Positions 30,545 through 36,293 of a DNA stretch of 64,000 nt are shown here, piece after piece (the stretch's first letter is position 1; each line of letters begins with the position of its first letter). The notes below the pieces were generated by a model. That model did not search any database. It saw only the letters and a program-made list of their open reading frames with translations, and had not been told where the DNA came from. A program made the position numbers and the translations under genes. The stretch spans positions 416,001 through 480,000 of the forward strand of contig CAWFAK010000009.1 of the NCBI GenBank assembly GCA_963813715.1, in the 5' to 3' direction. Source of the DNA: an uncultured Planctomycetaceae bacterium (lineage in GTDB: Bacteria > Planctomycetota > Planctomycetia > Planctomycetales > Planctomycetaceae).

Positions 30545-31742
<1,198 letters not shown>

Positions 31743-33066: not shown

Positions 33067-33645
33067 ATGGACGAAGAATCCCCGTCTGGCGATGCTCATG
33101 CCGCCGTGCAGGAGGGCATGCGCTGGTACGTGCTGAAGGTCCAGAGCAACCGCGAAAAGTCAATCCGTGACTCGCTGGTGCGGCGGCTCAAGCGCGAAGG
33201 GCTCGAGGACAAGTTCGGCGAGATCATCATTCCCACCGAAAAGGTCAAGGAAGCCAAAGGGGGCAAGACCCGGGTCACCGAGCGCAAGCTCTATCCCGGC
33301 TACATCATGGTCCAGATGATCCTCAACGACGAAACCTGGTATCTCGTGCGAGACACCAGCGGCGTCGGGGACTTCACCGGTTCGGCGGGCAAGCCGAGCC
33401 CGATGGACCAGTCGGAAATCGATCAGATGCTCGGCAAGAAAGTGAGTGCCGAGGCTGAGCCGCAGAAGATCAAGATCAACCTGGCCCGCGGCGACGCGGT
33501 GAAGATCAAGGAAGGGACGTTCGAGAGCTTCGAGGGGACGGTCGAGGCGATCGACGAAGAGCACGGCAAGATCACGGTGCTGATCGAAATCTTCGGCCGC
33601 TCGACGCCCGTGGAACTCGAATACTGGCAGGCCGAGAAAGTGTGA
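33067..33645 (+). CDS. nusG: Transcription termination/antitermination factor NusG
   Basis: [40 protein letters not shown] domain [18 protein letters not shown]...[10 protein letters not shown]. Confidence 0.96.
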
Positions 33646-33690
33646 GTGGCTGGACCCATCGCTTTCGGGACCGATTTTCAGGGTCGCCGG

Positions 33691-33868
33691 ATGGGGATCG
33701 AGTTCCTCGCGTGGGCGACGCGGCGAGTGATAGACGGAGCATTTGAGAGTTTCGAGGGGACGGTTGAACTGATCGACGAGGAACGCGGGAAGATCACGAT
33801 CAAGATCGAGATTTTTCGTCGTGCGACTCCGGTTGAAGTGGAATTCTGGCAGGTCAAAAAAAATCTGA
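33691..33868 (+). CDS. Stand-alone NusG C-terminal (KOW) domain paralog (frame also open from GTG 33646; reconstructed end ...WQVKKI*)
   Basis: [45 protein letters not shown] aligns with the NusG CTD immediately upstream. If the 8-A run at 33856-33863 is 7 A, TGA 33866-33868 falls at the homologous stop position. Confidence 0.7.
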
Positions 33869-33883
33869 CCTGCGGGGCAAGTC

Positions 33884-34315
33884 ATGGCAAAGAAAAAACA
33901 AGTCACGGCGGTCGTTAAGCTGCAGGCCACCGGGGGTCAGGCGACTCCCGCGCCTCCAGTCGGTACCGCGCTCGGTCCGCACGGCGTCAATATCGGCCAG
34001 TTTGTCCAGCAGTTCAACGAGAAGACGCGGGACCTGATGGGGACGACCGTCCCTGTGATCGTCACGATCTACAGCGACCGCAGCTTCGAGTTCATCCTCA
34101 AGAGCCCGCCGGCCTCCGTGCTGCTCAAGCAGATCGCGCAGATCGCCAAGGGCTCGGCGAACCCGAAGGCGGAAAAAGTCGGCGTGGTGACGCAGAAACA
34201 ATTACAAGAAATTGCCAAGCGGAAGTTCGAGGATCTGAATTCTCCCGATCTCGACCACGCGGCCCGCATCATAGCGGGCACCGCGCGGAGCATGGGGCTC
34301 GAAGTCGTCGATTAA
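33884..34315 (+). CDS. rplK: 50S ribosomal protein L11
   Basis: [28 protein letters not shown]. Confidence 0.97.
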
Positions 34316-35887: not shown

Positions 35888-36293
35888 ATGTCCACGGTGG
35901 CGGAATTCGATCAGACGACGAAAGAGCTTGGGGACAAGATTGCCGGCCTGACCCTGCTGCAGGCCAAGCAGGTCGTCTCCTATCTCAAGGATGTTCACGG
36001 TATTGAGCCGGCGGCCGGCGGCGCGATCATGATGGCACCCGGCGGCGGTGGCGGCGGTGCGGCCGCTCCGGTGGAAGAGAAGACCGAATTCGACGTGATC
36101 CTGGCCGCGGTGGGCGACAACAAGATCAACGTCATCAAGGTGGTCCGGAGCGCCGACCAGCCTCGGCCTGAAAGAAGCCAAGGATCTCGTGGAAGGCGCT
36201 CCCAAGCCGGTGAAGACCGGGTTGCCCAAGGCCGACGCCGACAAGCTCAAGGCGGAGCTCGAAGCGGCCGGAGCAAAAGTCGAGATCAAGTAA
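35888..36293 (+). CDS. rplL: 50S ribosomal protein L7/L12 (indel near 36153)
   Basis: [10 protein letters not shown]...KINVIKVVR, then shifted frame [19 protein letters not shown]...[11 protein letters not shown] ending at TAA 36291-36293. Confidence 0.95.

Follow-up and report, generated by a model that had tools for sequence, protein, structure and literature searches.

As a hub, the KOW domain of NusG connects RNA polymerase both with Rho and with the ribosome; in E. coli the NusG tip (IFGR) and FxxF loop contact S10 and Rho, and isolated KOW domains serve experimenters as artificial tools. The structures solved for the housekeeping C-terminal domain (1NZ9, 2JVV, 2KVQ with S10 and 6DUQ with Rho) all show a five-stranded barrel. 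According to the portion of a NusG review used here (PMC7819879), the KOW domain binds Rho and S10 by the same region, and the specialised paralogues RfaH, LoaP, UpxY, ActX and TaA all retain the NGN domain and act while riding on RNA polymerase. A literature search including that portion of the review returned no description of a natural NusG paralogue lacking the NGN domain. The small gene considered here, which lies between nusG and rplK in a group of Planctomycetaceae and is named KOW2, resembles these paralogues in being a lineage-specific duplicate within the NusG family that could re-wire KOW contacts, but differs from all five in consisting of a KOW domain only.

The window, that is, the whole stretch of 64,000 nucleotides analysed here (G000:C9:416001-480000), belongs to a 7.49-Mb genome in 18 contigs with an estimated completeness of 82.6%. 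Its gene order reads tuf, a tRNA, a secE-like ORF, nusG, the interval with KOW2, rplK, rplA, rplJ, rplL, rpoB and rpoC (Table 1). When intact, KOW2 encodes 72-77 amino acids. We consider it probable (roughly 0.6) that the 3' end of nusG was duplicated in part and gave rise to a selected, KOW-only gene that is coupled to nusG and whose product would bind partners in trans.

Table 1. Features of the nusG-rplK region, private single-base insertions and two distant small KOW ORFs. Positions are those of the window unless a locus is named.
Feature	Position	Strand	Remarks
nusG	33067..33645	+	ATG 33067, stop TGA 33643-33645; NGN and C-terminal KOW; Pfam PF02357 (E=9e-26) and KOW
GTGA overlap, KOW2 GTG start (-1 frame) on nusG stop	33642..33645	+	sequence comparison
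KOW2 5' part as assembled, 34 codons and stop	33642..33746	+	RFRDRF 33660-33677, VGDAA 33711-33725, TGA 33744-33746
2-nt deletion site, GAGAG to GAG	33724..33728	+	comparison with G002 and G009; splits the ORF
KOW core (VIDGAFESFEG to FWQVKK)	33727..33861	+	in the nusG frame here, inside the as-assembled ORF 33646-33918
8-A run	33856..33863	+	one base more than G002
Short spacer with imperfect hairpin, KOW2 stop to rplK ATG	33866..33884	+	same spacer directly after nusG in G006
rplK (ribosomal protein L11)	33884..34315	+	Pfam Ribosomal_L11_N and Ribosomal_L11
Private insertion in tuf	31279-31280		versus G009, G002
Private insertion in rplL	36153-36154		versus G009, G002
Private insertions in rpoB	38589, 38683-4, 39509-10, 39589		versus G009, G002
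Private insertions in rpoC	41016, 41194-6, 41246, 44013-16		versus G009, G002
Small NGN-less KOW ORF, G094	L117:2093-2278		between an IscA/HesB-like gene and a short-chain dehydrogenase
Small NGN-less KOW ORF, G155	L118:1934-2128	minus	

That a copy of the NusG C-terminal KOW domain separates nusG from rplK had been proposed in an earlier note on this DNA, and BLASTP bears it out (31/46 identities, E=2e-20, against the ORF 33646-33915). The codon-by-codon count given there for 33511-33642 against 33733-33864 was reproduced exactly, with identity at 31 of 44 residues, of which 15 are specified by a different codon; at the nucleotide level 95 of 132 positions agree, and the differences are distributed 9/6/22 over the three codon positions. 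These two adjacent KOW matches are the only significant ones in the window's genome, where the next best has E=0.7. An assembly duplication, against which the same note had argued, is rejected because the insert recurs in three further species genomes and is covered by contigs of four soil runs, each from a different study. In a tree of the KOW core, all KOW2 sequences form one clade (support 98, or 94 without the converted G009 copy), which joins the genus's own, nearly invariant cluster of NusG C-terminal domains and not the C-terminal domains of other genera, and in which the branches are much longer than those of the C-terminal domains. As judged from this tree, KOW2 is of single origin.

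The encoded product is a NusG-type C-terminal KOW barrel by profile, predicted structure and structural search. The family profile matches the solved domains 1NZ9, 2KVQ and 6DUQ with E ~1e-14 to 1e-15 (best 1.5e-15), AF2 with the family alignment yields a five-stranded KOW barrel (pLDDT 74-83), and the top 18 Foldseek matches are all NusG, with an rmsd of 1.1-1.6 A over ~53 residues for most of the top ten. The short Pfam KOW model (PF00467) is a weak test, its gathering cut-off of 22.3 bits lying above the scores of the KOW2 protein P0001 (21.9), the window ORF (16.4) and the window's NusG itself (20.0). Pfam searches of the window ORF and P0001 gave KOW-type matches only and no NGN domain (PF02357), which is found in the upstream nusG alone; KOW2 is therefore not a full-length NusG/Spt5 factor. 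With the housekeeping domain it shares, besides the barrel, the motif positions GD..V..G.F..F.G.V and IFGR.TPVE. Of 20 aligned members, 19 have FESF (P0067 has FETF instead) and 14 have IFGR or VFGR (15 with the SFGR of P0003), while the window, P0074, P0076 and P0077 read IFRR; the aligned E. coli NusG tip also reads IFGR, and the KOW2 tip is more variable than that of NusG. Unlike the NusG C-terminal domain, KOW2 is a separate polypeptide with neither an NGN domain nor a linker to RNA polymerase, carries a conserved N-terminal leader and has evolved much faster than the nearly invariant domain of the genus. In intact members this leader reads V-(S/N/T)-(D/G)-[WTH]-RFRDRF and is followed by a short Gly/Asp/Arg-rich linker and by a core of the form VGDxVxVxxGxFESFxGTV...IDEE.GK...IE.FGR.TPVE.E.WQ. 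AF2 places a helix at residues 3-13 of the leader with low confidence (pLDDT ~52), in which W4, F8 and F12 would lie on one face.

The junction between the two genes is distinctive. All four KOW2-bearing loci, as well as a relic locus described below, have GTGTGA at the end of nusG, whereas in genus members of the same subclade that lack KOW2 the bases there are GTCTGA or ATCTGA. The start codon of KOW2 thereby overlaps the upstream stop (GTGA) in 4/4 KOW2 loci, the arrangement of a translationally coupled operon gene, and the distance from the KOW2 stop to the rplK ATG is 15 nt, or 13 nt in G010a. We infer initiation at this GTG from the codon-level conservation of the leader, rather than from direct observation, since shorter database calls begin at the Val codon of VGD (seven) or at MRVGD (P0071 and P0074). 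The interval contains no sigma-70-like promoter and no plus-strand intrinsic terminator; its sole hairpin with a T-run lies on the minus strand and is the 8-A run itself. This tight packing, with no promoter or terminator in between, would also suit an ORF whose translation matters and whose product does not, handing ribosomes from nusG to rplK and so setting L11 synthesis, but coupling of this kind has no need of a leader motif or of a whole KOW fold conserved at the amino-acid level, and in G006 and other species the short spacer alone connects nusG with rplK; we regard this explanation as quite improbable. The spacer contains an imperfect hairpin, TGACCTGCGGGGCAAGTCA, directly before the rplK ATG. 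This hairpin is conserved whether or not a species has KOW2, and it may be part of the rplK translation-initiation region.

Two further explanations concern how the interval is read. Programmed -1 frameshifting at a GAAAAAG near the end of nusG would produce a NusG with tandem KOW domains, and it draws on the position of KOW2 in the -1 frame of nusG, which is open upstream, and on the GAA AAA G found just before the stop in G002, G009 and G010a. The same string, however, occurs in G001 and G011, which lack KOW2, the window has GAGAAAG in its place, GAAAAAG is not a canonical in-frame X XXY YYZ heptamer, and every locus offers a GTG start that overlaps the stop, all of which leaves frameshifting hardly probable at all. 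The leader could also be a cis-acting RNA element of the L11 operon, with only a 52-aa KOW made from the GTG of VGD, as the shorter database calls would have it. Against such an element, the interval matches no known RNA family in Rfam, its RNAalifold consensus has 1 compensatory pair in 21 and an unfavourable covariation term, that is, no conserved RNA structure, and variation in the leader is restricted to synonymous third positions of a single frame, which argues for coding and makes an RNA element very unlikely. Independent coding from the GTGA start remains our preferred reading of the junction.

The occurrence of KOW2 was followed in 61 related genomes and then in all 12 species genomes of the genus. 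A second KOW lies between nusG and rplK in four of the 12 (G000, G002, G009 and, on contig C47, G010), and the ORF is intact at 73-77 aa in G002, G009 and G010a. The G010 bin holds two different nusG-rplK loci, L036 (G010:C47) with an intact KOW2 and L008 (G010:C509) with a relic, so that the bin probably mixes two strains or species; at the end of contig C47 there is an inverted repeat of the rplK start, which looks like an assembly artefact. The relic, G010b, is 5'-truncated and bears several indels, and its score is reached by none of 300 shuffles. The same shuffle test found no significant relic in the spacers of G003, G004, G005, G007, G008, G001 and G011, and a leader remnant spotted by eye in G003 failed it. 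In 386 other family genomes, no KOW2 was detected beside nusG. A scan of 398 family genomes gave leader and KOW matches together only in G002, G009 and G010, and in none of the 14 other genomes with two KOW matches does the second adjoin nusG.

In a search of a 5.8-billion-protein collection, ten distinct full-length proteins with the leader were found (P0001, which is that of G009, the G002 ORF, P0068, which is that of G010a, P0002-P0005, P0067, P0069 and P0070), together with eight distinct proteins called shorter, from VGD or MRVGD (P0007, P0018, P0071-P0074, P0076 and P0077). Public data thus hold at least 18 distinct intact KOW2 proteins with an open frame and the same stop, named 'hypothetical protein' or, automatically, 'NusG'. 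A scan of metagenome contigs with the family alignment kept 80 loci, all of them ordinary NusG C-terminal ends, with a second KOW or the leader motif in none of the 80, and the ESM Atlas offered generic small 'KOW motif' clusters only. In a two-gene species tree, weak at depth, the KOW2-less G006 is the partner of G009 (support 90), and G010b that of the intact G010a locus (98). The short spacer behind KOW2 in G009 is also what joins nusG to rplK in G006, an arrangement that fits loss by recombination between the two KOW copies, although it may instead be the ancestral state. KOW2 has been lost repeatedly within the genus, and it is dispensable, given its absence from eight of the 12 genomes, the relic locus and the frame-breaking alleles in the window's lineage.

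Several lines of evidence bear on whether the copies that persist are maintained. Nei-Gojobori dN/dS over the whole ORF, calculated for the three orthologues with DNA (G002, G009 and G010a), is 0.21, 0.28 and 0.19, and the corresponding binomial probabilities of the synonymous excess under neutrality are 5e-5, 6e-4 and 2e-5. These ratios, far from a value near 1, uphold the purifying selection that had been claimed for the locus, as do the intact frames in the three genomes and among the database proteins. Variable sites of the ORF are distributed 19/20/41 over the codon positions, and position 33741 is A, G or C depending on the strain and always the third base of an Ala codon. Gene conversion by nusG could make the core, but not the leader, look more constrained than it is. 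The KOW2 of G009 differs from the C-terminal domain of its own nusG by 7.5 synonymous and 1.5 non-synonymous differences, and its core was evidently converted by that domain before those differences arose. The leader is the cleanest test of selection because nusG offers no template for its conversion: no significant similarity to nusG was found, on which ground an origin from the nusG linker read in another frame was also rejected.

These data can be set against a functionless tandem duplicate heading for loss, which would look conserved merely through youth and gene conversion by nusG. Such a duplicate would readily explain the patchy distribution within the genus, the truncated relic of G010b, the near identity of the G009 core to its own C-terminal domain, the long KOW2 branches and the lesions in the window's lineage (the 2-nt deletion and, in one RNA contig, a 1-nt deletion at 33703). 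It would not explain why, in a leader that has no donor in nusG, all six variable sites in the RFRDRF codons of G002, G009 and G010a are third positions and all are synonymous, or why leader length differences between proteins are whole codons. The low whole-ORF dN/dS and the 18 or more distinct sequences sharing an open frame and a stop speak against it as well, and so do the derived residues ISIE and VKRI, common to most KOW2 members and absent from the C-terminal domain. A decaying duplicate is, on balance, unlikely. By its substitution patterns KOW2 is under purifying selection, yet evolves faster than the NusG C-terminal domain.

The copy in the window departs from this picture of a maintained gene. 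Its start and leader are as in relatives, after which 2 nt are missing relative to both G002 and G009, so that the frame beginning at GTGA, to which the VGDAA start of the KOW belongs in canonical KOW2 (the -1 frame), runs into a stop at 33744. The KOW core itself goes on in the frame of nusG, hence the longest listed ORF is 33646-33918. The earlier note had reconstructed the KOW start with two compensating 2-nt indels, which comparison with intact orthologues replaces by one 2-nt deletion and one extra A in the 8-A run. The deletion is real and not an assembly error: two contigs from different studies, one of 463 nt in run X2 and one of 137 nt in run X1, carry it with 0 differences and 0 gaps against the window (either run could be the source sample of the window), and P0081, a 58-aa JGI protein, has the deleted frame (MGIEFLAWATRR...) on a G002-like core. 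In runs X3 (an RNA library, two contigs) and X4 (one contig), the extra GA is present and the end reads AAACGAA. The contigs and P0081 therefore indicate that intact and deleted alleles coexist in the G000/G002 species complex. Independent contigs, in place of the read mapping envisaged earlier, thus confirm both the locus and the 2-nt deletion, whereas none of the four runs covers the A-run in its 8-A form.

Compared with intact orthologues the window copy accordingly has a disrupted frame, which data other than the assembly confirm, and in this it resembles a pseudogene, although a 58-aa leaderless ORF remains. The earlier proposal of a free KOW mini-protein of ~58 aa from ATG 33691 holds as regards a maintained coding sequence, for which intact ORFs and dN/dS speak, but not as regards its product: the canonical protein has 72-77 aa from GTGA, and the ~58-aa ORF, although called by a gene caller (P0081), exists solely in the 2-nt-deleted allele and omits the conserved leader WTHRFRDRF. 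The deletion separates a 34-aa leader peptide from the KOW core. For the 57-58-aa form AF2 returns three strands only, with the first strand missing and the first 16 residues at pLDDT below 50, a slight hint that the window allele may be structurally impaired. The gene is split and possibly inactive here, and the window KOW2 is most likely a null or leaderless allele segregating in the population. The private substitutions of the window also occur in proteins whose frame is intact, T to I and G to R in both P0076 and P0077 and S to K in P0076 alone, so the change from IFGR to IFRR and the other private changes are not decay that followed the break. The base missing at 33703 in one X3 RNA contig reflects a sequencing error or else a third allele.

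The extra A is probably an assembly error, being of the same class as ten single-base insertions private to the window relative to G009 and G002, which break essential genes (tuf, rplL, rpoB and rpoC; Table 1). Such +1 insertions are a systematic error of the assembly, occurring roughly every 1.3 kb in the affected genes, and fit its completeness of 82.6%. No contig of the four runs covers the site in the 8-A form; relatives have AAACGAA there, and seven As are deduced from the protein P0073 alone, which ends in VKKI. With seven As the window ORF would end in ...WQVKKI at the stop TGA 33866-33868, like P0073, while P0079 has the same C-terminal extension as the 8-A form. RNA-library contigs cover the KOW2 locus, coverage that by itself is not proof of transcription or translation. 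In one RNA contig 33645 is followed directly by 33884, without the KOW2 insert; this contig is probably from another organism, since one of its sides spans only 27 letters.

KOW2 would be made together with NusG by translational coupling, and its product may bind S10 and Rho, given that most members keep the IFGR tip region. Since NusG contacts both partners by the same region, FESF and IFGR are kept, and rho and rpsJ are present in the window's genome, KOW2 could occupy the Rho and S10 sites while untethered from RNA polymerase, on which, lacking an NGN domain, it cannot sit. Besides the main rho on contig C5, that genome has a second and weaker Rho_RNA_bind match at G000:C8:635506-635727 (locus L128; E=8.7e-14, in an open frame of 258 aa). 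Acting in trans, KOW2 would compete with or modulate NusG-mediated Rho activation and ribosome coupling; alternatively, its leader might tether it to a new partner or bring the KOW elsewhere. The decoy that would titrate Rho or S10, as hypothesised in the earlier note, is suggested by the likeness to the NusG C-terminal domain and by the IFGR tip of most members, in whose place the lineage of the window's genome has IFRR.

KOW2 is not the only free KOW of NusG C-terminal type in the family. Four genomes encode Zn-ribbon-KOW proteins of ~125-170 aa (L121 in G088, L122 in G087, L123 in G209 and L126 in G153; P0040-P0066), in which an N-terminal Zn-ribbon module, MNISSRTPEG..CPxC..PTGDAxCPHCGxLLWF, is fused to a NusG-C-terminal-like KOW. 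In other proteins the same module is fused to acyl-carrier-protein (PF00550) or STAS (PF01740) domains, and it looks like a modular adaptor domain. Small NGN-less KOW ORFs of ~60-105 aa also occur far from nusG (L119 in G030, L120 in G084, L125 in G024 and L124 in G205, besides those of G094 and G155 in Table 1), and several have an Arg/Phe-rich stretch just upstream of the KOW that is reminiscent of the KOW2 leader. The Zn-ribbon-KOW proteins (for example P0040, annotated 'KOW motif-containing protein') and the 60-70-aa ORFs of G094, G155 and G030 resemble KOW2 as free KOW domains akin to the NusG C-terminal domain, and the other NGN-less KOW ORFs match the KOW2 profile with E from 1e-7 to 1e-20. 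Unlike KOW2, however, they do not lie beside nusG and their similarity is lower; their N-terminal parts differ, that of the former being a CPxC...CPHCG zinc ribbon, and the likeness may go no further than the KOW fold. It is conceivable, if rather doubtful, that the NGN-less NusG-tail proteins of the Planctomycetaceae are new trans-acting regulators in which an N-terminal adaptor places a Rho/S10-binding KOW off RNA polymerase. The Arg/Phe-rich helix of KOW2 and the zinc ribbon of the Zn-ribbon-KOW proteins would then be such adaptors, with the NGN domain of NusG, a specific RNA or the ribosome as candidate sites, and the proteins would tune Rho termination or transcription-translation coupling as a natural 'split NusG' or anti-NusG.

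KOW2 is known from one genus of soil Planctomycetes, where it shows the birth of a gene by domain duplication and a frame-shifted leader, already lost again in some lineages. If it is indeed a natural, selected KOW-only protein encoded behind nusG, it amounts to an evolved experiment in uncoupling the NusG hub, and it would offer a direct handle on the balance between Rho and the ribosome in a phylum whose transcription control has hardly been studied.
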